16,615 nt of DNA from a virus (IMGVR_UViG_2751185836_000001), one strand, 5' to 3'; counted from the stretch's first letter, positions 2,683-16,615 are shown. Program-made: numbers and translations. Notes: generated by a model not told the origin, from the letters alone.

Positions 2683-3156
2683 ATGCTATACAAACTTATC
2701 AATCCATCCGACCCATATGTGTTCGAAGCTAAGGATCACGAAACGGCGGCGCTCACCGTGCTGGCACTTGGAACCATGTACGGCGCGAAAGGAGAAGACG
2801 GGGAGCACGATGTTCCTGTCACTTTCATGATCGACCCGGAGGAATGGTTTAAGGAGACGTTTGGGAGGCCAATAGCAGTTGCACTTAATGAAAAGAAACA
2901 GGCTATAGCTGATGCGATGCTGTCGATGACATACGGAAATTTCCAGGACTACCAGGTGTACCAAAATACCGTAAAAACGATCGAGGATCCGGCAAAAAGA
3001 GAGCAATTTATCAGGGATTGGGCAAACCGGCGTTCGTCGATTACCGCCATCAGTGACAGGTGTCATCGTATAGGAGAAGAACTGTATAAACACAACGGAT
3101 GGAGAAGAGATTATTCAGAAATGGCAGATGGCTTGACAGCCGATGCGATCAATTAA
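2683..3156 (+). CDS. Hypothetical protein
   Basis: Strong RBS AGGAGGG, 157 aa ORF, followed by a terminator. Confidence 0.75.
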   Translation: MLYKLINPSDPYVFEAKDHETAALTVLALGTMYGAKGEDGEHDVPVTFMIDPEEWFKETFGRPIAVALNEKKQAIADAMLSMTYGNFQDYQVYQNTVKTIEDPAKREQFIRDWANRRSSITAISDRCHRIGEELYKHNGWRRDYSEMADGLTADAIN

Positions 3157-3172
3157 GGTACATTTGATAGGT

Positions 3173-3200
3173 AAAAAAGCGGAACCTGGTTCCGCTTTTT
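3173..3200 (+). terminator. Intrinsic terminator, copy 1 of the GCGGAACCTGGTTCCGC repeat
   Basis: A6-GCGGAACCTGGTTCCGC (3179-3195)-T5 just after a stop codon. Confidence 0.75.
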
Positions 3201-3205
3201 ATATT

Positions 3206-3286
3206 GCGGTCGGCTTGACGACCGGAGCGTGAGAGTTTCAACTACTCACGGAAGCCCACGCAGATGTTTGTGAGCATCAAGATTGT
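3206..3286 (+). ncRNA. Structured motif copy 1 (IS200/IS605 right-end/omegaRNA-like)
   Basis: Stem CGGTCG/CGACCG with loop GCTTGA; stem CGTGAG/CTCACG; GAAGCCCACG; loop CTTGA (3214-3218) complementary to TCAAG (3277-3281). Homologous to 8360-8442. Confidence 0.55.
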
Positions 3287-3406
3287 ACTACTCCTTTATA
3301 CGATGGCAAAAATCATATTTATTCATAACACATTTCCAGAAATATGCTTGCCTCCTCACTTCCATATTATTCTAACGAAGAAACACAGTAAAGGAGGGAA
3401 ATTGCC

Positions 3407-3706
3407 GTGGATACAATCGTTTCGAAGCATGGGACCAAGCGGATACGGCAGCGCTGCGGGATCCCGAAGAAGGCCACCAGCCGCCTTACGGAAAGAGCTT
3501 TCCAGGAGGGGAAGGACCGGACCTCTGTACATGGCAGGCTCCGGAGATGGATCGACAACACCGTGGATCTGGATGATGGGAAGTTTGTCCGTCTGTACAG
3601 AGGGAAGGTATATGTATTCGGAGAGAGGAACGTGCTCATCACAATCCTAAATGTCCCCGGAAACCTGCAGAAACAGCTTAATATACAAACAAAAGCAACG
3701 AATTAG
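3407..3706 (+). CDS. Small basic hypothetical protein, possibly BECR-fold (DUF4258/RelE-like) RNase
   Basis: GTG start with RBS AAAGGAGG; N-terminal SKHGTKRIRQR resembles 'T.HA..R..QR' and the C-terminus has VYVF...VLITIL. Confidence 0.65.
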   Translation: MDTIVSKHGTKRIRQRCGIPKKATSRLTERAFQEGKDRTSVHGRLRRWIDNTVDLDDGKFVRLYRGKVYVFGERNVLITILNVPGNLQKQLNIQTKATN

Positions 3707-3718
3707 GAGGTACAGCCA

Positions 3719-4240
3719 TTGGTCATACATCATTTATTACTCGTATTTCTTCCACATCTCATTTATGACGGTGATGACGAAGGCACAATCAAGGATAAAG
3801 TGGCATCTTATGCAGGAAGTGTATTGCGGCGCTTCCAGGGATCCGTATACAGCAGGGCCCTGCCATCCCCTTTTGATGACGGCGGAACCAATGTCCTGCT
3901 ATGTTCAGAAGATCCGGATCAGGCCATCCAGGAATTAGAAAAAATCCTTGCATTTCAAAAGTCTGAGGTTATGTATTGTCTGGATCGGATAGAAGAGAGT
4001 ACAGGTAAAGATTTCGGAAGTATTATCCGGAGACTGTATTCAGATAGCTTTGAAACTAGCTACGAATTCCCTATGGAGCATATCCGCTGCGTATCACAGT
4101 TCCTGGCCGGAGAGTACCAGATCAGTTCCAGGTTCTATAATACCTGGGAGAAGACCGCGCGGCTTTTACCCAAAGATATCGATGAAATAAAAAAGATGCC
4201 TGGCGATTGGGCGCTTGTCCAGTTTCTATTGGAAAAATAA
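3719..4240 (+). CDS. Hypothetical protein (acidic)
   Basis: TTG start 8 nt after GGAGG; 173 aa; 12 nt downstream of the previous gene. Confidence 0.7.
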   Translation: MVIHHLLLVFLPHLIYDGDDEGTIKDKVASYAGSVLRRFQGSVYSRALPSPFDDGGTNVLLCSEDPDQAIQELEKILAFQKSEVMYCLDRIEESTGKDFGSIIRRLYSDSFETSYEFPMEHIRCVSQFLAGEYQISSRFYNTWEKTARLLPKDIDEIKKMPGDWALVQFLLEK

Positions 4241-4368
4241 AGAAAAATAGGGCATTGCAGGAGTAAACGTAACAGTTTCTCAGAAATATATATGGGGCAA
4301 TAAAAAAATTAATGATAGTGTTCATGGCTGGAAGAAAAACATAATCAATACAGGAATAAGTCTGTGCT

Positions 4369-4410
4369 AAAAAGAGAGCCCCTTCCGGAATTCATGCTCC
4401 GGAGGGGGCT
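4369..4410 (-). terminator. Intrinsic terminator between convergent genes
   Basis: 13-bp stem AGCCCCTTCCGGA (4377-4389)/TCCGGAGGGGGCT (4398-4410) with one G-T pair; U-tract on the minus strand (A run at 4369-4373). Confidence 0.65.
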
Positions 4411-4413
4411 GTT

Positions 4414-5550
4414 CTATTCTCTAAATTCATAACCAAATGATTTCGTATCATAAAGCCGCATCTGTACAGGAGCGAGATAGGAGTGGTAGATGTGGCCGAA
4501 CTGAGGGATCTGAAGAACATCAGCGGCATGATGTAAGTTTAGCAGGAATTCTTCACGGCTGAATGTAGAACCTTTAGAAGTTCCATCTTCCACCATGATA
4601 CAGTTGGGGCTGTCTTCTTCACTAAGTTTTTCATCATGCCTGTAATAGTAAAAATACATCCCTAATTCGGAAGAAAGGATTTCGGCCACGGCACCACCAG
4701 TACCATCGCCATGTTTATCTGTCTCGAAATCCGCAAATACTTCATCAGCATCTTTTCCTTCATCTATGATCTGGAGAAGCATTTTGGAACGGGCTTTGTT
4801 CGTACAGAATGTGCCACGATATTCATTCAAAAAGTCAACAAATCCTGGAGGAGTCTCCGGGTAGTGAAACCCGTACCCGAAAGTTGTTGTAATCACCTGT
4901 TTTTCGTCATCATCCCCAAAGATAGCTTTTAGAAGTCGTTCCTCCATTCTTGTTTTTTCTACCTCTTTCTTACTTCGGATTGTCGTTCCAGGCTCACCAA
5001 AATCCAGGAAGATCAAGTTGCCGTTTTCTGTTCGAGAATAGTAGATGGTTCCCATCGTCGTACACAAATTCTCCCCATCTCCCCAACGATATTCGAAACT
5101 CATTTCCTTTTCTGCCCAACGGTGTCCGTCTTCAGAGCAGGGTTCTTCCTCTTGGAAATCGAATTTTCCGTTTTCTTCCATACACAGGATTTCCATAGCG
5201 TGTAGAGCATCCGCAACAGATTTCCAAGGCTGCGAATAATCTGCTGTAACAAGGTTACTTAGGCCTTCCATAATAGCCGCTTCACAGCGTTTTACACGGT
5301 CAGCAATGGGCTCGATTTCATAGCCGCAAGCTTCCAGAAGCATCCTTTCTGTGATCGTATTCATGTGACTGGCCATATTTCTTAAAATTGCGACAGAGGG
5401 TCGCGATATTTCTTTATTGTTGAGCAATCGGTTGAGATGTTCCTTTGATATGCTGGCCTCTTCTGCAAATGCTTTTTGAGTGCGTGTCCCGATACCACGT
5501 CTTAAGAGCTCTCGGAATTCCTTGTATTCGCCTTTAGTGTCTTTTGCCAT
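4414..5550 (-). CDS. XRE-family HTH protein with a large acidic C-terminal region
   Basis: AGGAGG 8 nt upstream of the ATG at 5550; FRELLRRGIGTRTQKAFAEEASISKEHLNRLLNNKEISRPS is an HTH_3-type pattern; the remaining ~300 aa are unrecognised. Confidence 0.78.
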   Translation of the reverse strand: MAKDTKGEYKEFRELLRRGIGTRTQKAFAEEASISKEHLNRLLNNKEISRPSVAILRNMASHMNTITERMLLEACGYEIEPIADRVKRCEAAIMEGLSNLVTADYSQPWKSVADALHAMEILCMEENGKFDFQEEEPCSEDGHRWAEKEMSFEYRWGDGENLCTTMGTIYYSRTENGNLIFLDFGEPGTTIRSKKEVEKTRMEERLLKAIFGDDDEKQVITTTFGYGFHYPETPPGFVDFLNEYRGTFCTNKARSKMLLQIIDEGKDADEVFADFETDKHGDGTGGAVAEILSSELGMYFYYYRHDEKLSEEDSPNCIMVEDGTSKGSTFSREEFLLNLHHAADVLQIPQFGHIYHSYLAPVQMRLYDTKSFGYEFRE

Positions 5551-5573
5551 GATCATATCCTCCTATAACTTAA

Positions 5574-6767
5574 CTATAAATAGATGCTCTGCTTTTTCAT
5601 TGCCATCTGGATAGTCTCAAAAATACCATTTAGGAGCTGTGGCTCAATTGGTTCTTCCAGGTTTACGTTTCCAATACCGGCAAGGATAGACTCTTCGGCA
5701 AAGTTCAGCATTGGACTGAGAAATTCTTCTGCATATATTGAAAAGTTTTTCTTGATCACTGCCTCTATAAAGGGATGACAAAGAGCCTTTATTTTTTCTT
5801 CGGCCAATTCTACCGGATCACTTTCTGGATCATAAGGTTCATCCGTGCTTTCGTCCCTCTCGCAGTCATCTGCATCATCGGTCACAAGGGGATACAGGAC
5901 ATTGACGGGATCTTCCAATGCTACGGCGTCAATGTATGTACCAACCGGAAGGACCGGTTTCACCTTGGTCGGACATGGGCAGGATACGATCTCGTATAAT
6001 TCCTGTAAGGACTGTGCCGGACACCCGAATGGCGTGATATAAGGGATACCACGTGCTCCATTGTTGATCAAGGTATCTGCGTATTCCTGCAGCATCCTGC
6101 TTTCATTCCTTATGATGACCTCCGGAGCTTTGAGTGCTTTTAACTTGGCCAAGCGGCCTATTCTCAGGATCAAGCGGTTATACAGGTATTCCATCGGGAT
6201 TGGGCTCCAGGCCGGTTTTTTGTTTTTACGTTCTACTTTCTGGTACCGCAGTGAAAGCGGGATGACCGGCAGGCAGTGCAGGATGATATGTTCGTACTCT
6301 GGAGCATGCTCTCTTTTTAAGAGAGCTTCGATTGCCTCCGCTCCGCACAGACAGATAGCACCGGGGTACTCTTGATGGAATATTTCAAAATCCTTTTCTT
6401 CTACAATCTGTTTGTATCTGGCCTCTGTCTCTCCCGGCTCAATAACGACGTGTGCGCCATAATATACAATTTTCTCGATTTCTTTTCTGGGGATGCCAAG
6501 GATGCGGGGCAGGATTGGCCTGCTTCCAAATAGATACTGGATGTTGACGATCGGGATCGGGAGGGAAATGTGTCCCATCAGGGTTTCCTCATCACTCATT
6601 TTCCCGAAGATTTTGGGATCAGTCATAGACCGTTCAACAGGATCTCCCTCCTCACAAGGGGAAGGGAATATGACCTCGCCATTCGAAAACTCCAGGGTCA
6701 TCCCGTCGGTGAGTTCCGTCATTTCTGCCGCCGTCGATACATTTGTATTCATCCATCTCTTATTCAT
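5574..6767 (-). CDS. rpoC: Stand-alone RNA polymerase beta' (RpoC) N-terminal/clamp-like protein, divergent and internally deleted, no catalytic domain
   Basis: Collinear RpoC motifs: FSNGEV..P, KIFG, MGHISLPIP, EKIVYYGAHVVIEPG, GAEAIEALLK, ILHCLPVIPLSLR, LYNRLILRIGRLAKLKALKAPEVIIRNESRMLQEYADTLINNGARG, AQSLQEL. GGAGG 8 nt before ATG 6767. No NADFDGD motif. Confidence 0.85.
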   Translation of the reverse strand: MNKRWMNTNVSTAAEMTELTDGMTLEFSNGEVIFPSPCEEGDPVERSMTDPKIFGKMSDEETLMGHISLPIPIVNIQYLFGSRPILPRILGIPRKEIEKIVYYGAHVVIEPGETEARYKQIVEEKDFEIFHQEYPGAICLCGAEAIEALLKREHAPEYEHIILHCLPVIPLSLRYQKVERKNKKPAWSPIPMEYLYNRLILRIGRLAKLKALKAPEVIIRNESRMLQEYADTLINNGARGIPYITPFGCPAQSLQELYEIVSCPCPTKVKPVLPVGTYIDAVALEDPVNVLYPLVTDDADDCERDESTDEPYDPESDPVELAEEKIKALCHPFIEAVIKKNFSIYAEEFLSPMLNFAEESILAGIGNVNLEEPIEPQLLNGIFETIQMAMKKQSIYL

Positions 6768-6812
6768 CTTTTGCGCCTCCGTAATTGATATGTTATTCAT
6801 CTGGTTGATTTT

Positions 6813-6841
6813 ATTGTAATATATCAACCGAATGATGTCAA
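6813..6841 (-). promoter_or_regulatory. Near-consensus sigmaA promoter for the rpoC-like/XRE operon
   Basis: Minus strand TTGACA (6841-6836), 17 bp, TACAAT (6818-6813). Confidence 0.75.
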
Positions 6842-6869
6842 TATAAAAATGATTTATATGTGGATTTGT

Positions 6870-6883
6870 ATTGATATATCAAT
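6870..6883. promoter_or_regulatory. Perfect 14-bp palindrome, candidate operator
   Basis: ATTGATATATCAAT; degenerate copies lie in the promoter spacer (~6817-6828) and near 6784-6797 and 6894-6903. Confidence 0.5.
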
Positions 6884-6911
6884 TTAGTGCGTTTTGTTAT
6901 CAACCCTATAT

Positions 6912-6937
6912 AAAAAAGACAGACCGTCCGGTCTGCC
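6912..6937 (-). terminator. Intrinsic terminator
   Basis: Minus strand GGCAGACC-GGAC-GGTCTGTC-TTTTTT, just after the stop at 6945. Confidence 0.75.
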
Positions 6938-6944
6938 CTAGTTA

Positions 6945-7178
6945 TTATTCTTCTACTTCCACATGGAGGTAATAGCCCCTGGGGGTGTGCTCAATCTTGC
7001 GGATGACACCCTTCCGGGACAGGATCCGCTCATTCGTGCGATAAATCCCGGACATGGCCACGGATGGGTCCACCAGATAGGTATACCGGCCAGTGCTGGG
7101 CCTCCTTTCACTGATCGTCACTTCCTGGCCCTCCTCAACCAGGCCTTCCCGTTCCATCTTAAATTTCTCTATCCTCAT
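6945..7178 (-). CDS. Small hypothetical protein
   Basis: AGGAGG upstream of ATG 7178 (MRIEKFKMERE...HVEVEE), 77 aa. Confidence 0.72.
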   Translation of the reverse strand: MRIEKFKMEREGLVEEGQEVTISERRPSTGRYTYLVDPSVAMSGIYRTNERILSRKGVIRKIEHTPRGYYLHVEVEE

Positions 7179-7191
7179 AGTGCGCCTCCTC

Positions 7192-7722
7192 TTATATGAT
7201 CTTATGCCTGATGACTGCCTTTTCCCACTTATCATCCGGAAGTTCCATAGCGAAGTCCTCCAGGAGCTTTTGCTTGGTGACCGTGTATTTCATCTGATCC
7301 TGCCTCTCCAGAAGAGTGCGAAGCTCTTTCCAGAAAGAAGGCCGTAGCGACAGGAAACGAACAGCCTGGATGATATTGGTATCAAGGTCCGTGAGCACAA
7401 CGGAAATGCCGGGCGTTTTGGGATGCTCCTTCGGTAGTTCCCCCTGCCGGAAGTGTACTGGGCACTCTGTCATAATGACCCCGCCAAAATCCAGGAGCAG
7501 CACCACGATACCCCGGTATTCATACAGGGCCACCTCGGCCGGCCGACCGGGAAGGAGAGCTGTGATCTCTTCAGGCTTCGGCCCACGCAAATACAGGTTG
7601 GCGATCAGCCCGTTATTTATGCAGTCACAGATGGTCGTTTCCCCCTTCGGCGGAACAAGCTGGTTCGCCCGTCCCCTGACAAAATCGATGTCTTCGTTAT
7701 CTTGCAGCAATTCTGCGCTCAT
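7192..7722 (-). CDS. Hypothetical protein
   Basis: 176 aa ORF with RBS GAGGGGG, in a co-directional minus-strand run. Confidence 0.72.
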   Translation of the reverse strand: MSAELLQDNEDIDFVRGRANQLVPPKGETTICDCINNGLIANLYLRGPKPEEITALLPGRPAEVALYEYRGIVVLLLDFGGVIMTECPVHFRQGELPKEHPKTPGISVVLTDLDTNIIQAVRFLSLRPSFWKELRTLLERQDQMKYTVTKQKLLEDFAMELPDDKWEKAVIRHKII

Positions 7723-7876
7723 CAGTTTCCCCCTCTTTTTTAATGATCTCCGTTATCTCCCGGACCGGCAGCAAATAGATCCGGGACAATTCCCTTTTCG
7801 TGCGGCCAGCCCTGAAATCTCTTACGATATCAGCAGAAGACCAGGCTTCTTTGCTTGGTTCGTTCATAAAGTCCAT
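7697..7876 (-). CDS. 59-aa putative small HTH protein (below the ORF-track cut-off)
   Basis: My translation: MDFMNEPSKEAWSSADIVRDFRAGRTKRELSRIYLLPVREITEIIKKEGETDERRIAAR*. RBS GAGGGGG; it overlaps both neighbours and fills the gap between them. IVRDFRAGRTKRELSRIY resembles a Mor-type HTH. Confidence 0.55.
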   Translation of the reverse strand: MDFMNEPSKEAWSSADIVRDFRAGRTKRELSRIYLLPVREITEIIKKEGETDERRIAAR

Positions 7877-8172
7877 TCGGTGTCCCCCTCATTATATTTT
7901 TTCTTCAATATCCAGTATCGATAAAACCAGTCGTTCTGTATAAATACGACCTCATTACCGTTATCCACGATATCTTCTTCCGGGTGGATCTGGTCATCTT
8001 TCACGGCCTGCCAGGATTGCGTCAGAAATTGGTAACGCTCATCTGCTTCCACTTCCTTAATATCCGTATACCCGCGGATGGGTGTGTGCCACCGCATAAG
8101 CCCCCGCCGGGCCGCGTCCATAATATCTTTCCTGTGAGCCGCATACGCCTCACAGATTTCTTTTTTTCTCAT
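7864..8172 (-). CDS. Hypothetical protein
   Basis: Start taken at MRKKEICEAY (GGAAGG upstream); first gene of the minus-strand run. Confidence 0.68.
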   Translation of the reverse strand: MRKKEICEAYAAHRKDIMDAARRGLMRWHTPIRGYTDIKEVEADERYQFLTQSWQAVKDDQIHPEEDIVDNGNEVVFIQNDWFYRYWILKKKYNEGDTEWTL

Positions 8173-8262
8173 ATAAAATCCCTTCCGTTTATAAGTGACA
8201 ACATCCATTATAGCGAACAATCGTTCTTTTTTCCACTGTATTCTCAAATTGTTTCCACAGCC

Positions 8263-8271
8263 TGTGGATAA
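8263..8271. promoter_or_regulatory. DnaA box
   Basis: TGTGGATAA (reverse complement TTATCCACA), facing the degenerate GTTTCCACA at 8251-8259, in the divergent intergenic region. Confidence 0.35.
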
Positions 8272-8359
8272 CTTTGAAAAAATAATTCATTTTTATATGA
8301 CGGTGGCTCGTCTGAGAAAAAGAGACTTGGCCCTCGTTTGCTACTGTGTTTATATAACA

Positions 8360-8442
8360 GCGGTTGGCTTGACAGCCGAAGCGTGAGGGATTTTCTACTC
8401 ACGAAAGCTTCTTTAATCAAAAAAGGGCATCAAGAAGATTGT
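8360..8442 (+). ncRNA. Structured motif copy 2 (IS200/IS605 right-end/omegaRNA-like)
   Basis: Stem CGGTTG/CAGCCG with loop GCTTGA; CGTGAG/CTCACG; AAGC-N18-GCATCAAGA; CTTGA (8368-8372) pairs with TCAAG (8430-8434). Confidence 0.55.
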
Positions 8443-8472
8443 GGCTATCATTATGTGAAAGGAGCGGTATTT

Positions 8473-8667
8473 ATGGAAAACAGATGCGTATGCTGCGGAA
8501 AGGTTATCCCAGAAGGAAGAATGGTATGCAAAATATGTGAGATTGAGGCAAATAACAGGCTCACATTGAAACAGAAAAAACATGCGTCAGGAAGTACGGA
8601 ACAGCCGGGTAAAAATAAAAGAAGGCTTTTCGTATGGAGAAGCAAAAAGGAGCGACTATTCAAATGA
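8473..8667 (+). CDS. Small zinc-ribbon protein (phage-type)
   Basis: RBS AAAGGAG; MENRCVCCGKVIPEGRMVCKICE carries two CxxC pairs. Confidence 0.6.
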   Translation: MENRCVCCGKVIPEGRMVCKICEIEANNRLTLKQKKHASGSTEQPGKNKRRLFVWRSKKERLFK

Positions 8668-9110
8668 GTTTTTGAACCAATATCACAGTCACCATAAGTC
8701 TGTCATCGCCCACAAGTTCTAAGTGGCGGCGAAAAAGGACGGGGAAATAGTAGGCGTTGCCATTGTAGGACGTCCGGTTGCCCGCGGCCTGGATAACGGC
8801 AGGACCCTAGAGGTGACCAGGCTCTGCACGGACAGGACAAGAAACGCCTGCAGCTTCCTGTACTCGAAATGCGCCTAAATCGCTAAAGATAAGGGGTATT
8901 CTAAGATTGTAACCTATATTCTGGAGAGTTATCCCGGGACAAGCCTGCTGGCCAGCGGGTGGACACTTGAGGAGGCGGGAGTTGGTGGAGGCAGTTGGGA
9001 TACCCCCAGCCGGAGAAGAGAGCTCATCGAAGGCCAGCTTTCTTCCTCCCCTCAGAAGGAAAAATTTCCGACAGGGAAGAAAAAAAAGATATGCAAAACT
9101 ACTGTCCGCA
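8663..9110 (+). pseudogene. XF1762-family (Mom-like GNAT) protein pseudogene
   Basis: NEFLNQYHSHHKSVIAHKF*VAAKKDGEIVGVAIVGRPVARGLDNGRTLEVTRLCTDRTRNACSFLYSKCA*IAKDKGYSKIVTYILESYPGTSLLASGW...GGGSWDTPSRRRE. In-frame TAA at 8720-8722 and 8876-8878; probable frameshift in the A-run near 9080; no clear start. Confidence 0.8.
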
Positions 9111-9188
9111 GGGAGCTTACCACAGAAAACTGCTGGCATCAGGAAATGTGTATAATTATATTATAGAAAACGAAGGAGAGGTATATTA

Positions 9189-10603
9189 ATGAGTAATACT
9201 GTCATCATCACAAGGAAATATATTCTTATTCCCGAAAAATGCAATCAAAAGATATGGAAGAAGAAGGTCAGGGATTTCCTGGCAAGCGAGATCCTCCGCA
9301 TTAATGAACTGATCTCACAAAAGGGTAATAAACAGGCCTGGAAGGAGAAGCTCAAGGCCAAAACAGAGCAGTATGAAGCTTATCTCCAGGAGTATGATGA
9401 AACAGACGTGTTCCCCGTGAAAGCTTATACGGATTACACATACAGCCTGATACGTACCGCGATGGAGGACGAGGCCAGGCGGAAGAACTACATCATGACC
9501 TGGATCTATTCCGAGATGATTGCGAATGGCGTGCAGTATATGGACTCTCTTCTCGACAAGTACAAATTCATCACTGAAACGATCAAGCCGGCTTACCGGG
9601 TGAAAGGCAGCAGCAAAGGCAGCCTTTTTGATGACGTGGAGATCAACAATATCCTTGGCGGCTATGGGAACGGATGGAACCAGGAGTTGACAGCAAAGGT
9701 TAAGGATCTGGTCAAAAACGGGTTGCTCGAAGGAAAAGTCTCCCTGGTAAACTATAAGATAGACTCCCCGTTTACCGTTCCGAAATCAACCATGCGGCTC
9801 ACGCATGACTATAGAACCTATGAGGAGTTATGTGAGCATATACATAAAAAGGACTGCAACTTATACCTGGATTACGGGTCAAAAGGCACACCAACAATAG
9901 CTAGGTTCCGGCTTGAACTGGGGACGGCCAAAAACAAAAAGATATTAAAGACGGAGCTACTCAGGCTGTACTCCGGTGAACACAAGTTATGCGGAAGCAA
10001 GATCGGTATAGAAGGAAACAAGATTGTCCTCTACATGCAATGGAGATCCCGAAAAAGGAAATCCAGTTGGACGAAAATGTCATCTGCGGTGTGGCGCTTG
10101 GTATGAACATCCCCGCGGTATGCGCACTCAATTCTTCCGATGAGAGGAGTATGATCGGATGCGCTGACGATTTTCTCCGTATCCGCGTGCAGATGCAGGA
10201 GCAGAGGAGACGCCTTCAGAGGGCTCTAAAGAGCACATCCGGCGGTCATGGACGCAAGAAAAAGCTGGCAGGCCTGGAACGGCTCAAGAAGCGGGAACAT
10301 AATTTCGTCAACACATACTGTCATTTCATCAGCAAGAGCGTGGTAGATTTTGCCGTAAAGAACAAGGCGAAATATATCTACCTCCAGGATCTGGAAGGCT
10401 ATGACACCAATAAGTTTGTCCTGCGAAATTGGAGCTACTATAAGCTCCAGGAGGATATCACTTACAAAGCGGAGCGCTACGGTATCATAGTACAGAAAGT
10501 AAAGGCTGCTCCTGTCAAAGAAGTAAAAGATCTGGATTATGAAGCTCTTATTAAAGTCGATTACGAAACTGCCAGAGGTATCGCCCTTACAAATGCAGCA
10601 TAA
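9189..10603 (+). pseudogene. Cas12f/TnpB-like protein, predicted nuclease-dead, split by one frameshift at ~10038 (~471 aa if joined)
   Basis: ORF 9189-10106 ends ...KIVLYM and continues in another frame as MEIPKKEIQLDENVICGVALG...GGHGRKKKL...HFISKSVVDFA...YIYLQDL...LRNWSYYKLQ..ITYKAE.YGI...VDYETARGIA. These are Cas12f-type WED/RuvC motifs. Confidence 0.85.
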
Positions 10604-10620
10604 CAGAAGTTTCTCATATC

Positions 10621-10652
10621 GCCCTGTCTACAGTCGTAGGCGGGGCATTTTT
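10621..10652 (+). terminator. Hairpin plus U-tract after the Cas12f-like gene
   Basis: GCCCTGTCTAC-AGTC-GTAGGCGGGGC (11 bp including G-T pairs), followed by ATTTTT. Confidence 0.65.
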
Positions 10653-10682
10653 CGTCTCACAAAATCGGCCGAAATCAGAAAT

Positions 10683-10691
10683 TGGTATACT
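10683..10691 (+). promoter_or_regulatory. Extended -10 promoter candidate
   Basis: TG-G-TATACT about 40 nt upstream of ATG 10732. Confidence 0.4.
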
Positions 10692-10731
10692 AGAGGTGTA
10701 GCAAGGAAGCGCAAAGAAGGAGGAACACGAC

Positions 10732-10989
10732 ATGGCAAAGAAAACAGGATGGTACCCAGTAGACAATAACAAAAAACCGTCTCCTCTGCAAGAGGGGGAT
10801 AGGGTTTGCGTATCTGGAGACACAGCGGAGTTGTGGCTACAGGGCTATAATGTCAGGGTCTCCACGCAGGCCACCGTTGTGGACACTCCTTCTCCCAGAG
10901 ACAAGAAGGTATTGGTCTGTTTGGATGAAATAGACGGGCATCATAATGTGTGGTGCATGGTCAGAAAAAGCAAGGTAACAAAATTATAG
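10732..10989 (+). CDS. Small hypothetical protein (SH3/KOW-like beta-barrel possible)
   Basis: RBS AAGGAGG; LQEGDRVCV...ATVVD...VLVCLD pattern. Confidence 0.7.
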   Translation: MAKKTGWYPVDNNKKPSPLQEGDRVCVSGDTAELWLQGYNVRVSTQATVVDTPSPRDKKVLVCLDEIDGHHNVWCMVRKSKVTKL

Positions 10990-11002
10990 CGGAGGGTGAG
11001 AT

Positions 11003-11371
11003 ATGACCATCAAAGATTTTAACCCGGGACAGAAAATTTATGTATTATATATGAAAAAAGGATATAACGCAGCGCCGGAGCTCTTCGAGAGAAAAGTGGT
11101 AAAGGTCGGCCGCAAATACATCACGGACGACAGGGGCTGCCGATTTTATGAGTCAGATATAATTTTGTCATCAGACAGGCGCACACATGTCTTCTTAGAA
11201 GACCGTGAGTTCGGTGAGAAGGGATTTCTGTTTGCGACCAAAGAGGAAGCGGACTCCTGGGTTGAACTGGACGAGCTGGAGAAATGGTTGGCAACGATCC
11301 GTTGCAATAACCATCCGTATACGGTCGAGCAGTTGCGAAGAGTGAAGGAAATCCTGGAACCGGATGTATAA
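11003..11371 (+). CDS. Hypothetical phage-type protein
   Basis: RBS GGAGGG; DFNPGQKIYV...VVKVGRKYIT is a pattern common in Firmicute phage small proteins. Confidence 0.72.
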   Translation: MTIKDFNPGQKIYVLYMKKGYNAAPELFERKVVKVGRKYITDDRGCRFYESDIILSSDRRTHVFLEDREFGEKGFLFATKEEADSWVELDELEKWLATIRCNNHPYTVEQLRRVKEILEPDV

Positions 11372-11390
11372 GAGAAAGGTGGAATGACTT

Positions 11391-11606
11391 ATGAGGGTAA
11401 TGCTCACTTGGCTGAAGAAGGACGGGACATGCCGAAGTTGGACCAATGCGTCCCCGGAAGAGCACGTCTGCATGTCAGCAACTACTTGGGAGGATGCACT
11501 ACAGAGGATCTGCGAGATCTGGCATACTACTCCCAAGGAAGCGGAGAAGAAAATATACAAAAGTATCTCAAAATTGGAAGTAAAAAGAAAGGAGAGCGCA
11601 AAATGA
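11391..11606 (+). CDS. Small hypothetical protein
   Basis: GAAAGGTGG about 8 nt upstream; its TGA overlaps the next ATG (ATGA at 11603-11606). Confidence 0.6.
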   Translation: MRVMLTWLKKDGTCRSWTNASPEEHVCMSATTWEDALQRICEIWHTTPKEAEKKIYKSISKLEVKRKESAK

Positions 11607-11944
11607 GTTTTGATGAATTTAATCTGTCCCAGGAATACAGCGAAGAGTTTGACCGGCTCCGGAAGAACCGGGTAGAGCAGAGTTTTTACAAGTACGGGCC
11701 GGCCAGGAAGAACTATAGGACCGGATATGTAAAGGCTATCCCATCCATGGAGAGATGTCTCGTTAAGTATAATGAGACTGGCAACAGGGAATACCTGGTG
11801 GATGCCGCCAACTACCTTATGTTTGAGTATATGTTCCCACAGCACCCGAAGGCCCATTTCCGGCAGACGCCGAGTGAGGAAAGCGCCGGCATTGTCGGGA
11901 TCAGCGTGGCTGAGATGGAGAAATATAAAGAAGAGAATTGCTGA
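11603..11944 (+). CDS. Phage-type helical protein, possibly all-alpha NTP-pyrophosphatase (dATP/dGTP diphosphohydrolase-like)
   Basis: RBS AAAGGAG; FDRLRKNRVEQSFYKYG..KN...MERCLVKY.ETGNREYLVDAANYLMFE. The function is a weak inference from the KYG..N and helical pattern. Confidence 0.6.
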   Translation: MSFDEFNLSQEYSEEFDRLRKNRVEQSFYKYGPARKNYRTGYVKAIPSMERCLVKYNETGNREYLVDAANYLMFEYMFPQHPKAHFRQTPSEESAGIVGISVAEMEKYKEENC

Positions 11945-11952
11945 CCATCCAG

Positions 11953-11981
11953 AAAAAGCGGAACCTGGTTCCGCCTTTTTT
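11953..11981 (+). terminator. Intrinsic terminator, copy 2 of the GCGGAACCTGGTTCCGC repeat
   Basis: A5-GCGGAACCTGGTTCCGC (11958-11974)-C-T6 after the stop at 11944. Confidence 0.75.
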
Positions 11982-12134
11982 GTTAATCTGAACTATTCCG
12001 GATATCCTCCGGGTAAAATCGTTCCAACGTACCATCTCCTTGCAAACATTATTTTAGATAATATGGTAATTTTTTTAATACCAGCTTTTCGCATATTTCT
12101 TTTGAAAAAAGCTTTCATAAGAGGAGGAATGAAC

Positions 12135-13028
12135 ATGAAACTTTATTTTGAAGACTTTTGCATTGAAGCCGTTAATTTGCGTGAAATCGCAAAAGCTATT
12201 TGTGAACGGATCACTGTCCCGGATGACATCCCGGAGGGGACACCAGACGAGATAGAGTATGTGCTGGAAGTCGCCGACCATATTTTAGGAAAAAACCGCA
12301 CCATCCTTTACAAAAACGGTGAGCAGCTCATGGAAATGACAAAGGCTGACCTCGGAGATTTGCTCTATTATAGCACCAACCATGGGTATGAGACCCCGGA
12401 TGTGCGTTTCTTTAACGAGTCGGAGGGCAATGAGACCGGAAATTCTTTTTGTCAGATCCTGCTCCTCTACATCGAGGTCCATTACTGGGATATGATGAAA
12501 GAGGGCATAGAAAAGAAAGGCTTCAGTGTAGACCTGGTGCCTGCTGCTGAAGGAGGAGATTTTACGGCTCTGGAAGAGAAAATCTTCACCTCTTCAAATA
12601 ACGCCGTCTACATCTGCTCCCCGCTACGAGGACAGACTCCAGAAGAGACCTATCAGAATATGCTGGCAGCCCGCAAGTATATGTTGGCAGCATACCGTTT
12701 GACAGGTGATCCGGCGGTAGCACCACACGCATACCTGCCTGTTGTTCTGGACGATATGGTTCCAGAAGAGCGGGAATATGGCCTGCTGGCAGGCAAAAAA
12801 CTCCTGTACCGCTGCAAAAAGCTTTTTGTGTGTGGCGACAGGATCTCGGAAGGCATGAAGGGTGAAATCCTGGAAGCGGCGCTTCTGGGTAAACCGATCG
12901 TGACTTTTGACAGGAACATGTTCTGCCGGGTCGCTAACTTGATCTGCGCCGACGACTCTCTTGGCTGTGGTGGCGGTGTGTGCCTGATGCGGGGCTATGA
13001 TGAGCTGGCCACGCCGGCAGCTAAATAG
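12135..13028 (+). CDS. Two-domain protein: unknown N-terminus plus DUF4406/nucleoside 2-deoxyribosyltransferase-like C-terminal domain
   Basis: GAGGAGG 7 nt before ATG 12135; VYICSPLRG...N...ARKY...APHAYLP..LDD..PEER..GL..G..LL..C..L.VCGDRISEGMKGEI..A...GKPI. Confidence 0.75.
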   Translation: MKLYFEDFCIEAVNLREIAKAICERITVPDDIPEGTPDEIEYVLEVADHILGKNRTILYKNGEQLMEMTKADLGDLLYYSTNHGYETPDVRFFNESEGNETGNSFCQILLLYIEVHYWDMMKEGIEKKGFSVDLVPAAEGGDFTALEEKIFTSSNNAVYICSPLRGQTPEETYQNMLAARKYMLAAYRLTGDPAVAPHAYLPVVLDDMVPEEREYGLLAGKKLLYRCKKLFVCGDRISEGMKGEILEAALLGKPIVTFDRNMFCRVANLICADDSLGCGGGVCLMRGYDELATPAAK

Positions 13029-13104
13029 TCTTTAAAGAAAGAGATAAAATCCTCCTATTTTTCATATTCTTAATGAAATTTTATGAAAAGAGGAGGATTT
13101 TATC

Positions 13105-13683
13105 ATGGCAAAATCATATGGAGGTTATGACATCGACGACAGTACCCTGCAGACGTTTGTGAACAGCCTTTGCTGCCACATAAAGATTTCTCGATCGCCT
13201 GGAGTCAAAACAGGGAGTACAAAAGAAATGTACTATGCTCTCTGGGAAGTAGAAAAAATCTTCCGGGAAATACGGAAAGATTTAGATGGGCCAGCATTAA
13301 TGAAAGGATGTATTCCCTTCATTGGCGAGCTTCTCTATTATTGCGAAAACAATGATGAGGTAGTACCCGATATCTGCTTTTCAGACCCAGAAGAGGCTCT
13401 TTGGTCATTTGAGCAGTTGGTCACTCTCTACATCAAAGACCATTACAACAAGGTAAGCTACCTTGTTAGACGGGTGGATGACGGATGGAGATATCCTGAT
13501 GAAGCAGAAAAACTGCTTCAGAATGAACAGGATGTCCTTGTGGAAAAACTGGATGGCACGGTCTCGCCAGCTAAATACAAGACAGCGAACGGTGTGGCAG
13601 GCTTTTTCATTAACGGAGAGAGTTGGTGCATCCGTAAGTGGACTGTCCTCAATGAAGAGAAAGAGTCAATATCTGACCTCTAG
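13105..13683 (+). CDS. Hypothetical protein
   Basis: RBS AGGAGG, 192 aa, followed by a terminator. Confidence 0.75.
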   Translation: MAKSYGGYDIDDSTLQTFVNSLCCHIKISRSPGVKTGSTKEMYYALWEVEKIFREIRKDLDGPALMKGCIPFIGELLYYCENNDEVVPDICFSDPEEALWSFEQLVTLYIKDHYNKVSYLVRRVDDGWRYPDEAEKLLQNEQDVLVEKLDGTVSPAKYKTANGVAGFFINGESWCIRKWTVLNEEKESISDL

Positions 13684-13690
13684 CTAGGAG

Positions 13691-13716
13691 AAGACGGCAA
13701 AATGCCGTCTTTTCTT
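13691..13716 (+). terminator. Intrinsic terminator
   Basis: AAGACGGCA-AAA-TGCCGTCTT followed by TTCTT. Confidence 0.7.
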
Positions 13717-13799
13717 ATTTACTACCATATTTAATAAGAAGAAAGCCGCTGATCTAAAAGATAGATTGGCGGCCAAAACTATCAGGAGGAAAAAGGATA

Positions 13800-14036
13800 A
13801 TGACAGGAAAAAGCAGTTACAAGAATATTTTTGCCACGAAATCAGAAATGGAATTGATGGAGCTGTATAAACAGTTCCTTGAATTCGAAGAGACCGGACG
13901 GCTCCCGGAAGGCACCGAGTTGGAGGACGTCTTTGGAAAATACAGAGAATGGTTCAAGCCAGATGCTGCTCACATTATGCAGTTTGATATCTTACGTGCC
14001 GCGGCGGCACAGTGGTACGAGTCAATGCTCGGGTAA
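13800..14036 (+). CDS. Small hypothetical protein
   Basis: RBS AGGAGG/AAAGG upstream; 78 aa helical sequence. Confidence 0.7.
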   Translation: MTGKSSYKNIFATKSEMELMELYKQFLEFEETGRLPEGTELEDVFGKYREWFKPDAAHIMQFDILRAAAAQWYESMLG

Positions 14037-14101
14037 GGAATATATCCAGAGTTGGCCATAATGCATCTGCTCATGTGAGAAAATGGTGATCATTCCCGCT
14101 T

Positions 14102-14110
14102 TGGTACAAT
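14102..14110 (+). promoter_or_regulatory. Extended -10 promoter candidate
   Basis: TG-G-TACAAT 30 nt upstream of ATG 14140. Confidence 0.4.
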
Positions 14111-14139
14111 GGATATACAAAGCAAAGGAGGAAGAGCAG

Positions 14140-14829
14140 ATGGCAGGAGATATAAGACAGATTTCAGTTTTCATAAACAACAAATCCGTGGTAGAGCTTA
14201 TGAACAAGCTTCACATCACCACACCTGGCAAAGGATGCCGCCTACACAATGAAGGCGACAGAAACTCCAACAACTCTTTGATCGGAATAAACCTTGTAGA
14301 CTACTCGGTAGACCCGTCTGTCTTTGTTTCGGATAATATCACTCCCAGTCAATTAAGGGAGCTGTACTATGAGGCGATCTTAAAAAGGGATGACTTTAAA
14401 TTCAACACATCTAAGATCTTCGGGGAACCCGACAAAGACGGATACTGCACGACCAGGATCATGCGCATCAACCGCCAGCGGAGCTATGTCCAGAATGGAA
14501 AGACTATAGAAAAAAACTACCCATGGACGATCACAGTCGAAAATGGTAAAGGTATTAAAGCAATCAACCAGTATACCGGCGGGTCTTCGATCAAAAAAGG
14601 AACGTATATACGAGAAAAAGCGGCATCAGCAGTCTTATCAGACGGTGACTTTTTTGCGCTCTTTGATAAAGCGGTCCGTTTTGTGGAGGCCTGGGAAGCT
14701 GCATATGCGCCCAAGTTTATTGCGGCTACTATAGACGCGATTGCAAAAGCTGATAAGGAATGGCAGAGCAGGGGGCAGGATGGTCCTGATACAGGGCAGT
14801 CCACAGAAAGTAACGGCTATTCAGAATAG
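14140..14829 (+). CDS. Conserved-looking hypothetical protein of Clostridial mobile elements
   Basis: AAGGAGG 8 nt before ATG 14140; SKIFGEPDKDGY...KNYPWTITVENG...GG..IKKGTY...SDGDFF motifs; function unknown. Confidence 0.72.
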   Translation: MAGDIRQISVFINNKSVVELMNKLHITTPGKGCRLHNEGDRNSNNSLIGINLVDYSVDPSVFVSDNITPSQLRELYYEAILKRDDFKFNTSKIFGEPDKDGYCTTRIMRINRQRSYVQNGKTIEKNYPWTITVENGKGIKAINQYTGGSSIKKGTYIREKAASAVLSDGDFFALFDKAVRFVEAWEAAYAPKFIAATIDAIAKADKEWQSRGQDGPDTGQSTESNGYSE

Positions 14830-14954
14830 TATTTAGAAGTTAACGGAGGAAATTCTTGGAGAGAATGATGTGGAGAATTACAAGTACACGCTCAATTTTA
14901 ATCCCAACATGTGGCTCCCTGTAGAGGTAGAGACGATTGATTAAGGAGGAGCAA

Positions 14955-15170
14955 ATGGAAGAGGCTCATAAGAATACCAAGAACAGGCCTTTAGGAGCAT
15001 ACTACTCACTGGAAAACTGGCTGTATAACCAGAAAGACAAGGATACGAAAACGAAATCATCGATGCTCTGGGGAGGCCTTTGGATACTGAAAGAAATGGG
15101 GATCATCACTTGGGATGAAATGAGGACGATGTATGGAGAGTTTATGAGTAAAGAGATGGGGCTGAGATAG
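14955..15170 (+). CDS. Small hypothetical protein
   Basis: AAGGAGGAG upstream of ATG 14955; 71 aa. Confidence 0.68.
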   Translation: MEEAHKNTKNRPLGAYYSLENWLYNQKDKDTKTKSSMLWGGLWILKEMGIITWDEMRTMYGEFMSKEMGLR

Positions 15171-15194
15171 AATTATATTTATCATTACTGAGAA

Positions 15195-15218
15195 GGCGGA
15201 ACCTGGTTCCGCCATTTT
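15195..15218 (+). terminator. Intrinsic terminator, copy 3 of the GCGGAACCTGGTTCCGC repeat
   Basis: GGCGGAACCTGGTTCCGCC (15195-15213) followed by ATTTT, after the stop at 15170. Confidence 0.65.
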
Positions 15219-15310
15219 GTATTTCTTGCGTTTAAGTGTACTACCATATTTATTTACCATGGAATAAAAGAAAAAGGAGATTATTATGCTGATCAGTAAA
15301 AATAGTAATA

Positions 15311-16615
15311 ATGAATATGGCTGATTTTGAAAATGATGAAATCTTGAAGTATGCGATTGAGCATGATATGATTGATATGTCATATATGCAACAGCAAATA
15401 GAAATGAATAAGCGTCAAGAGTTATTGGAAAAGCATCCTTATTCAATTTGGGAAGGAAAAGATGGGAATTGGTATACTCATTTGCCAGATGAAAAAAAAG
15501 GACGCATTTTACGAAAACGGAAAACACAAGATGCGATTGAAAAGGTTGTCTGTGACTATTGGAAAAATACGGAGGTGAAGAAAGAAAAAGAAGTATTTTC
15601 AGGTATGACTTTACTGGAATTATTTCCTAAATGGTTACGTTTTAAAGCAGCAAGGACAAATTCAACTTCTTATATAAAGAGAATTACGGCTGATTGGAGT
15701 AGATTTTATATAAATAATGAGATAATCAATAAAAGGATACAGTCGTTGAATAAGATTTATTTGGATACATGGGCGCATACTATGATAAAAGAATACTCAT
15801 TAACGAAAAAATCTTATTATAATATGTCCATAATCTTACGACAGTGCTTGGATTATGCTGTAGAATGTGGTGCGTTAGAAAAAAATGTATTCCGGGAAGT
15901 TGTGATAAATAAAAAGCTGTTTGTACGGAAAAAGAAACCAGATGCATCAACTCAGGTATACACTACATCCGAAACACCAAAAATCATTAATGAAATGATA
16001 AGACGGTATCGTAACAATCCACGAAACACAGCTCCATTGGCTGTAATTCTTTGTTTTGAAACCGGAGTAAGAATAGGTGAGTTGGTCTGCATCAAGATGT
16101 CGGATATACATGGAAATTACATTCGGGTTCAAAGGCAAGAAGTGAGAGATTTTGCATATGTATCGGAAACGCAAATGACGTTTAATGGCTTCCGTGTTGT
16201 TGAGTATACAAAGTCAAGTGATGAATACAGAGACGTTTATTTAACGGAAACAGCCAAATATATTATCAATTTCGTTCAACAAGTTAATGAACTATACGGA
16301 AATAAATATGATGATTATTTGTTTGTCTTTGGGGAAAAGAGAATAAATCATTATGGAATACAAACGCAAATATTGCGTGGATGTAAACATATTATGATCC
16401 CAACAAAGACAGCGCATAAAATCCGAAAAACATACATTTCTGCTTTGATTGATGCCGGAGTAAATATTGATGAAGTAAGGCGCGTTGCAGGGCATGCAGA
16501 TGAAAGAACAACTTATGAAAATTATTGCTTCAATAGAGAGACAGAAGAAGAAACAAACGAAAAGATAGAAAAAGCGCTTAATAATAAATTGGTAACCAAA
16601 AGTAACCAATTTTAG
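15311..16615 (+). CDS. int: Tyrosine recombinase / phage-type integrase
   Basis: ETGVRIGEL (R), EYTK (K), HKIRKTY (HxxR), AGHADERTTYENY (H...Y); N-terminal arm-binding-like region and SAM-like core-binding region; stop TAG at 16613-16615. Confidence 0.92.
   Translation: MNMADFENDEILKYAIEHDMIDMSYMQQQIEMNKRQELLEKHPYSIWEGKDGNWYTHLPDEKKGRILRKRKTQDAIEKVVCDYWKNTEVKKEKEVFSGMTLLELFPKWLRFKAARTNSTSYIKRITADWSRFYINNEIINKRIQSLNKIYLDTWAHTMIKEYSLTKKSYYNMSIILRQCLDYAVECGALEKNVFREVVINKKLFVRKKKPDASTQVYTTSETPKIINEMIRRYRNNPRNTAPLAVILCFETGVRIGELVCIKMSDIHGNYIRVQRQEVRDFAYVSETQMTFNGFRVVEYTKSSDEYRDVYLTETAKYIINFVQQVNELYGNKYDDYLFVFGEKRINHYGIQTQILRGCKHIMIPTKTAHKIRKTYISALIDAGVNIDEVRRVAGHADERTTYENYCFNRETEEETNEKIEKALNNKLVTKSNQF

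Follow-up and report, generated by a model that had tools for sequence, protein, structure and literature searches.

What function is served by two short, pseudoknot-forming motifs that lie in direct orientation in the viral stretch IMGVR_UViG_2751185836_000001 (16,615 nucleotides (nt), hereafter the window, meaning the whole stretch analysed), on the same strand as a disabled Cas12f-like gene? We propose, with a probability of roughly 0.75, that the two motifs provide the scaffolds of natural single-guide RNAs, that these RNAs load the nuclease-dead product of the Cas12f-like gene at 9189-10603, and that the complex regulates transcription. A sequence-only reading of the window had previously noted the two motifs, likened them to orphan TnpB omegaRNAs and suggested that they might serve the dead protein in trans. 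The copies and the sequence they share are indeed present where that reading placed them, both on the plus strand, and the window contains two occurrences of their 22-nt core (GGCTTGACNNCCGNAGCGTGAG), where chance would give 0.01. The parts of the two copies and the effector gene are as follows, with scores from the covariance model (CM) R1 presented below.

3205-3282, + strand: copy 1 scaffold (CM R1, 95.9 bits)
3207-3212/3219-3224, + strand: copy 1 stem P1 (CGGTCG/CGACCG, 6 base pairs (bp)), with loop GCTTGA at 3213-3218
3228-3233/3245-3250, + strand: copy 1 stem P2
about 3255-3274, + strand: copy 1 stem P3, a putative collapsed anti-repeat:repeat hairpin
3277-3281, + strand: copy 1 pseudoknot partner TCAAG
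8359-8435, + strand: copy 2 scaffold (CM R1, 92.8 bits)
8361-8366/8373-8378, + strand: copy 2 stem P1 (CGGTTG/CAGCCG, 6 bp), with loop GCTTGA at 8367-8372
8382-8387/8398-8403, + strand: copy 2 stem P2
8409-8427, + strand: copy 2 P3 region
8430-8434, + strand: copy 2 pseudoknot partner TCAAG
9189-10603, + strand: nuclease-dead, C-terminally truncated Cas12f-like gene, frameshifted near 10037 in the window

In both copies an AGC junction separates P1 from P2, a 6-bp hairpin (CGTGAG/CTCACG), and P2 is followed by GRAAGC, an 18-nt spacer unrelated in sequence between the copies, and GCATCAAGA, within which TCAAG is complementary to the P1 loop (CTTGA). The base-pair changes reported earlier for the first stem, from C-G to T-A and from T-A to T-G, are real, as is the invariant GCTTGA loop with its complementary distal segment. 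Rfam yielded no match at the gathering score anywhere in the window, and at E < 10 around both copies there were only chance-level matches, the best being AgrB on the minus strand over the copy 1 terminator, below the cut-off. When each copy was folded singly by minimum free energy, the z-scores were only modest (-1.8 to -2.0) and copy 2 came out mis-paired, so comparative structure was used instead. As a separate matter, the TTGAC in the P1 loop was considered as a sigma-70 promoter element and ruled out, since neither the window nor the relatives have a suitably spaced -10 box.

Scaffolds beside nuclease-active homologues in gut phages

To what do the motifs belong? We retrieved 80 IMG/VR loci by effector protein family alone, comprising catalytically intact homologues of approximately 550 amino acids (aa) from large gut phages, and searched them with CM R1, which had been built solely from six motif sequences of the window's own clade. 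Across these loci (540 kb) the model gave 139 matches at E < 0.01, distributed over 68 of the 80 and sharing the effector's strand without exception (77 lay 5' of the gene match and 52 lay 3' of it), whilst in control phage loci L001-L007, reached via an unrelated zinc-ribbon open reading frame (ORF), nothing scored better than E 3. On five whole phage contigs the matches cluster at the effector locus, and three of these contigs also have one distant orphan unit. The earlier description of conserved, structured, stand-alone scaffolds with a pseudoknot beside a 3' guide is borne out by the recurrence of the same fold, and the search of additional homologues with a covariance model that it had recommended showed covariation of P1, P2 and the pseudoknot. 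Its suggestion that the scaffolds serve in trans the dead Cas12f-like gene lying 750 bp 3' of copy 2 gains support from these sequence comparisons, as the fold flanks homologues of that gene and is always on the gene's strand.

Solitary units far from the effector were also observed in the nuclease-active phages L124 (~2004), L125 (~2025) and L126 (~2044), that of L124 lying in or before a tRNA gene cluster.

The arrangement is laid out in locus L064 (IMGVR_UViG_3300045988_130749), where some 1.1 kb of DNA 3' of the 551-aa gene has no ORF longer than 63 aa and holds four units (4157-5250), each consisting of P1, P2, a short CTATGT-like segment and a 36-nt repeat, in that order. All four are followed by one to four further near-identical repeats with a 65-67-nt period and unique spacers of ~30 nt; the spacers of these arrays had no match among GenBank phages. 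Extra repeats with the same period, again one to four, accompany 59 of the 95 distinct units over all loci and none of the dead-clade units, both window copies included.

These relatives also bear on the proposed origin from the right ends of IS200/IS605 elements, for which the 5' parts of the motifs (AVGLT..*) had been read as TnpB C-termini. In overall layout, with stem-loops, a pseudoknot and a 3' guide, the motifs do look omegaRNA-like, and TnpB omegaRNAs also have a pseudoknot next to the guide. However, the effectors of the relatives end in ...ALTKAA or ...KDDKVA, and their scaffold units begin after the effector stop codon and are fused to CRISPR-like repeats heading mini-arrays, which argues for an ancestry resembling type V-F trans-activating CRISPR RNA (tracrRNA) and CRISPR RNA (crRNA) rather than a transposon end. 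Neither copy overlaps a tnpB 3' end, no transposon boundary is apparent (copy 1 and its L023 orthologue are 95% alike through the putative guide and beyond), and the only ORF with a motif-like end encodes an unrelated protein of the phrog_10705 family. We regard orphan IS200/IS605 omegaRNA right ends, together with an unrelated riboswitch or ribozyme (a further suggestion, which found no support and no Rfam match), as the least probable of the explanations considered here.

Covariation of the pseudoknot and stems

Is the pseudoknot real? Within L064 the P1 loops ATTTCG, ACTTTG, ATTTCG and ATTTCA are matched by the repeat ends CGAAAC, CAAAGC, CGAAAC and TGAAAC, giving three different loop/repeat-end pairs in one locus (TTTCG/CGAAA twice, CTTTG/CAAAG and TTTCA/TGAAA) that may be orthogonal tracr-repeat pairings for a single effector. 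Ten different loop 5-mers occur over all loci, and 93 of the 96 distinct units have the complement of their own loop within the stretch 5-110 nt 3' of P2, compared to 14.7% for the other nine loops; since many units are related, it is about nine independent switches of both partners, not 96, that count. The model-fitted alignment A7 shows pairing in 98.3% of P1 and P2 cells and 171 double changes, slid controls reaching 45% at most; the 98.3% leans towards the structure because the alignment was fitted to it. The segment that follows P2 finds its partner in the repeat hairpin's 3' arm, immediately 5' of the pseudoknot, and the mean longest stem of this anti-repeat pairing, P3, is 8.1 bp versus 5.2 in shuffles.

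The same comparison locates the end of the scaffold. In the relatives, a single nucleotide of repeat (1 nt) separates the pseudoknot 5-mer from the start of the spacer, and conservation between units stops 1-2 nt after the pseudoknot and drops to chance in the guide region; between the orthologous units L037a and L042a, 10 of 12 positions match before the boundary and 4 of 20 after it. The guide starts predicted earlier, near 3281 and 8434, fall within 2 nt of this boundary, which places the putative guides as follows.

3283-3302, + strand: putative guide of copy 1 (TTGTACTACTCC...), placed by the repeat/spacer boundary of relatives, with a provisional 3' limit
8436-8455, + strand: putative guide of copy 2 (AGATTGTGGCTATC...), placed by the same boundary, with unrelated sequence at this position in the orthologous units of relatives

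Relatives of the window's clade

The window had no megablast match among GenBank phages or PLSDB plasmids, and exact-pattern scans of IMG/VR and GTDB genomes returned chance matches only. The first true relatives were syntenic contigs from a metagenome scan, to which more were added via protein anchors; the zinc-ribbon ORF, used as an anchor, retrieved phage loci without the motif, and ORF 3407-3706 retrieved few relatives. Approximately ten distinct motif variants were assembled from these relatives, two per element. Across them P1 varies in a compensatory manner (T-A, T-G or C-G at one pair and C-G or T-A at the adjacent pair) with few mismatches (C.A in L032, A.G in L023b and U.C in L023a), P2 is largely invariant, and the loop CTTGA and distal TCAAG are unchanged in every variant. 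The 18-nt spacer described earlier as diverged in sequence and identical in length is so in the two window copies, but the corresponding spacer between the P2 side and the pseudoknot measures 9-55 nt in the relatives, so the equal length is not a trait of the family. It folds into a hairpin whose base covaries between L037a (CCTATGT/ACATAGG) and L042a (CCGATGT/GCATCGG), as do CATG/CATG versus CGTG/TACG, and the compensatory change in L042a preserves the anti-repeat pairing and disrupts the repeat's own internal hairpin. Every relative that covers the region has a copy-2-type unit 5' of the zinc-ribbon ORF and the dead effector gene, and P1, P2 and the pseudoknot are retained with compensatory changes in dead-clade relatives whose flanks have diverged to ~69% identity.

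Between unit b and the effector gene of L037, a structured GC-rich leader (7860-7900) contains a T-arm-like sequence (GGAGGGTTCGATCCCCTC) in which ARAGORN calls no tRNA.

The nuclease-dead Cas12f-like protein

Is the effector beside the motifs still a maintained protein? In the window its gene appears as an ORF pair (9189-10106 and 9989-10603) whose counterpart in L031 (DNA 97% identical) and L023 is a single uninterrupted gene of 471 aa. In contigs from the chicken-gut DNA run X1 and the RNA-library run X17 the frame is restored by one additional A after position 10037, and the frameshift in the window is a strain variant or an assembly error. By phmmer against the PDB, the closest solved relative of the protein is CnCas12f1 (8HR5, E 2.2e-45), followed by the Al3, Rh, As and Un1 Cas12f structures; an active homologue matches 8HR5 with E 5e-63, and the match of the dead protein to 9N9C (E 8e-27) is weaker than that to the nuclease-active CnCas12f1. 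Judged by this homology, the Cas12f fold is likely to have been kept. A protein database search recovered 530 homologues, and among the best 120 of these most are 510-580 aa long, ~50-57% identical and equipped with OrfB_IS605 and Cas12f TNB domains, with many encoded on 80-230-kb contigs. In GenBank phages, tblastn of the dead protein found no match.

When the 471-aa clade was aligned with 15 active homologues, two of the three RuvC residues were found to be changed, RuvC-I reading GVALG instead of GVDLG (D to A) and RuvC-II reading LQDL instead of IENL (E to Q), whilst the RuvC-III Asp is kept; an in-frame deletion has also removed the CxxC..CxxxxC zinc-finger module. The ratio of nonsynonymous to synonymous substitution rates (dN/dS) of the effector is 0.06 for L037 versus L042, with other pairs saturated at synonymous sites (proportion of nonsynonymous differences (pN) 0.09-0.15), a pattern of substitution indicating that the dead protein evolves under purifying selection. 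Together, the RuvC changes, the loss of the zinc finger and purifying selection point to a maintained nuclease-dead Cas12f derivative, and the clade may already have a name in published Cas12f/TranC trees.

A second TnpB-like gene (441 aa), with weak OrfB_IS605 and TNB matches and the precomputed Pfam assignment PF27142 Aq_aa04, lies just 3' of the dead effector in L023 (8316-9641) and L038 (9893-11218) and has no counterpart at that position in the window.

Loss of the nuclease raises the question of whether the motifs are simply decaying, non-functional relics of mini-CRISPR arrays that were left behind afterwards. The absence of extra repeats from dead-clade units, the shortened P3, the P1 mismatches noted above and, in the window, a frameshifted effector and a broken GNAT-like gene would all be expected of relics. 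The frameshift, however, is absent from other carriers, and both the compensatory conservation of P1, P2 and the pseudoknot in relatives with such diverged flanks and the selection on the protein make this explanation quite improbable.

Putative guides, targets and transcription

Do the motifs act in trans, as guide scaffolds, or in cis, on the transcripts that carry them? Several observations weigh against the guide RNA proposal, in addition to the lean of alignment A7. The association of scaffold and dead effector within the dead clade comes from syntenic relatives, which are not independent events. Neither putative guide has a match of at least 11 nt in the window or related loci beyond self-matches and chance, nor any match above chance in GenBank phages. 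Metatranscriptome contigs overlap copy 2 (contig X18, 7969-8497) and stop or start near copy 1, but contigs cannot show transcription, strand or ends, and a discrete small RNA from either copy is putative. No terminator was found between either scaffold and the next ORF, and no sigma-70-type promoter was detected on the plus strand upstream of the scaffolds. At copy 2 the putative guide reaches the ribosome-binding site that precedes ORF 8473-8667; together with the missing terminator, this makes a role in cis on the mRNA possible. A 12-nt AT-rich guide match at window position 16564 was judged to be due to chance.

A role in cis would make the scaffolds 5' leaders, bound on nascent or mature mRNA by the dead Cas12f-like protein or another factor that controls translation or stability of ORF 3407-3706 and of the zinc-ribbon and effector operon, an autoregulation requiring no DNA target. 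Such leaders would account for the position of both copies 30-125 nt 5' of same-strand ORFs with good ribosome-binding sites and nothing terminating transcription between, for the place of copy 2 at the head of the effector's own operon in all relatives covering that region, and for the failure to find a DNA target in the window, related loci or GenBank phages. They would also accommodate the observation that in L037b (7762-7790) and L042b (1997-2025) the pseudoknot strand ATCAAG could instead pair with a CTTGAT that lies within the putative guide, 9 nt further 3', to give a possible alternative hairpin. Yet what the scaffold heads in nuclease-active relatives is not an mRNA but a repeat-spacer array in non-coding DNA, the sequence 3' of the pseudoknot is swapped between orthologous units as spacers are, and unit 'a' of L037 (6054) and L042 (202) precedes tRNA genes (tRNA-Gln/Glu/Trp) and not an mRNA. 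We consider leaders acting in cis unlikely, and favour single-guide RNA genes acting in trans.

Proposed mechanism and significance

How would such single-guide RNAs have arisen and how might they work? P1 and P2 would form a 5' tracr-like domain, P3 would be a short hairpin remaining from the anti-repeat:repeat duplex, and a 5-bp pseudoknot would join the P1 loop CTTGA to TCAAG, the former 3' end of a CRISPR repeat, with the guide predicted to begin 1-2 nt further on, at 3283 and 8436. The window motifs would descend by collapse from the mini-CRISPR arrays that lie beside the active enzyme in related gut phages. In the dead clade, the repeat would have been trimmed to the small P3 hairpin and the array reduced to a single 'spacer', and each window copy would consequently be a natural single-guide RNA gene. 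The dead protein is envisaged to bind these RNAs, whose 3' segments would direct it to complementary DNA without cutting, making it an RNA-guided regulator of transcription and, by analogy with TldR and CRISPR-associated dCas12f, most likely a repressor. Its targets would be located outside the window, whether elsewhere in the prophage, in the host or in a competing phage.

More tentatively, the wider picture may be one in which the active phage relatives have a type V-F-like layout of several mini-arrays per locus, each headed by a short cis-fused tracr scaffold matched to the 3' end of its repeats, with pairs that are perhaps orthogonal 'pseudoknot codes'. In that case the window's clade would have co-opted such a system independently, as a regulator carried by a prophage, guided by RNA and equipped with two hard-wired single-guide RNA genes, which possibly works with the neighbouring beta'-clamp-like/XRE module to reprogram host transcription; we offer this as a doubtful extension of the proposal above.

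Nuclease-dead TnpB and Cas12f regulators with single guide RNAs are already known. The lineage described here stems from gut-phage Cas12f relatives in chicken-gut metagenomes, and its ~75-nt scaffold is absent from Rfam; neither this scaffold nor the layout of multiple scaffolds and mini-arrays was found described in a limited look at the Cas12f/TnpB literature. The window's clade appears to be an independent case of a phage-borne Cas12f immune nuclease turned into a nuclease-dead RNA-guided factor, and the natural sequences display a stepwise collapse from tracr-headed mini-array to single-guide RNA gene, the path that has been proposed for dCas12f. The scaffold is very short, with ~75 nt before the guide, and the ten natural loop/partner variants that support its pseudoknot constitute a map of changeable positions in compact Cas12f guide RNAs. 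If targets are found in a chicken-gut host, the system would provide a testable example of prophage control over host or rival-phage genes.

Neighbouring genes

What surrounds the scaffolds in the window? Two further features concern their immediate vicinity.

8473-8667, + strand: zinc-ribbon ORF (64 aa, CxxC..CxxC) between copy 2 and the effector gene, in the same place in L023 and L038-L041
3124-3147, + strand: partial third copy of the P1 region (GCAGATGGCTTGACAGCCGATGCG), forming the last 11 codons of ORF 2683-3156

The sequence-only reading had counted two copies, and two full copies are what the window contains; the partial third one is degenerate, being 88% identical to copy 2 with the hairpin lost and a CM score of only 13.8 bits. 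As the phrog_10705 profile spans residues 1-135 of the 157 encoded by ORF 2683-3156, the tail of this ORF lies outside the protein family, and the partial copy is probably a recombination scar joining a gene of that family to a former scaffold. A terminator-like hairpin (AAAAAGCGGAACCTGGTTCCGC followed by a T-run) occurs three times in the window (3174-3205, 11953-11984 and 15191-15222), and these hairpins coincide with breaks or junctions in contigs of run X1 (a joint from 3200 to 15186, with loose ends at 3173, 11953 and 15193), which suggests that modules are shuffled between strains by recombination there.

Between the two scaffolds, the minus strand of 4414-6827 encodes a 417-aa protein with a match to RNA polymerase Rpb1 domain 1 (beta'-clamp-like) and a 380-aa protein with a weak helix-turn-helix match. 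This module is found in L023, L038, L040 and L041 but not in L037, and therefore does not always accompany the dead effector. At 8700-9100, after the zinc-ribbon ORF and before the effector gene, a GC-rich stretch encodes fragments of a GNAT-like protein (..VGVAIVGRPVARGLDNGRTLEVTRLC..) that are spread over more than one frame. L023 lacks this stretch at the corresponding position, and a gene that was inserted and then broken is the probable explanation.

Comparison with known systems

Which known systems do the window's proposed guide genes most resemble? With type V-F (Cas12f) guides, such as those of CnCas12f1, they share a homologous effector, relatives with 36-nt repeats and ~30-nt spacers, an anti-repeat:repeat stem, and a pseudoknot, directly 5' of the guide, in which the repeat's last bases pair with the tracr part. 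Cas12 guide RNAs have been described in which the repeat's 3' end forms a pseudoknot with the tracrRNA beside the guide, through a conserved AAAC:UUUG pairing (10.1101/2025.01.20.633832). The tracr-like part here is only ~50 nt long, in contrast to published Cas12f guide RNAs of 129-200 nt (PMC13186708, PMC12255294), and it is cis-fused to the first repeat or its remnant instead of being encoded by a separate, trans-pairing tracrRNA gene; with the later repeats of an array it may also pair in trans. Also unlike type V-F systems, the scaffold is repeated before each of several mini-arrays per locus, each with its own loop/repeat-end code, and the window has no array and a dead enzyme, arrays being present only beside the nuclease-active phage relatives.

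Compared with TnpB omegaRNA or right-end RNA (reRNA), the likeness lies in a scaffold and guide within one molecule and a pseudoknotted scaffold directly 5' of the guide, and the difference in the lack of a transposon end, of TnpA and of overlap with the effector ORF, the copies lying 6 kb and 750 bp 5' of the effector gene. TldR guide RNAs are omegaRNA-like and located at the 3' end of the tldR gene, whereas one guide gene of the window lies 5' of the effector operon and the other ~6 kb away, both with CRISPR-repeat ancestry. The resemblance to TldR is otherwise close, each being a phage- or prophage-borne nuclease-dead protein of the TnpB family with a scaffold-plus-3'-guide RNA and a presumed role as a transcription regulator (PMC13418256, PMC13622181). 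TranC intermediates are reported to use both reRNA and crRNA (10.64898/2026.03.27.714800, citing the TranC study), and the phage relatives are TranC-like in mixing a cis-fused first unit with free repeats.

Chimeric single guide RNAs, for which a collapse from CRISPR arrays has been proposed, serve the dCas12f proteins of Bacteroidetes, which likewise have C-terminal truncations (PMC13472631). The lineage described here differs from the dCas12f-sigmaE systems in belonging to a Firmicutes-type gut phage or prophage from the chicken gut and in having no adjacent rpoE/sigmaE gene; Pfam scans of the neighbouring ORFs revealed no sigma factor, the only transcription-related neighbour being the beta'-clamp-like protein (RNA_pol_Rpb1_1) on the other strand. 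Common to dCas12f, including dCas12f-sigmaE, and to the window's clade are RuvC mutations, a C-terminal truncation, chimeric single guides and guide genes dispersed near the effector (PMC13472631).

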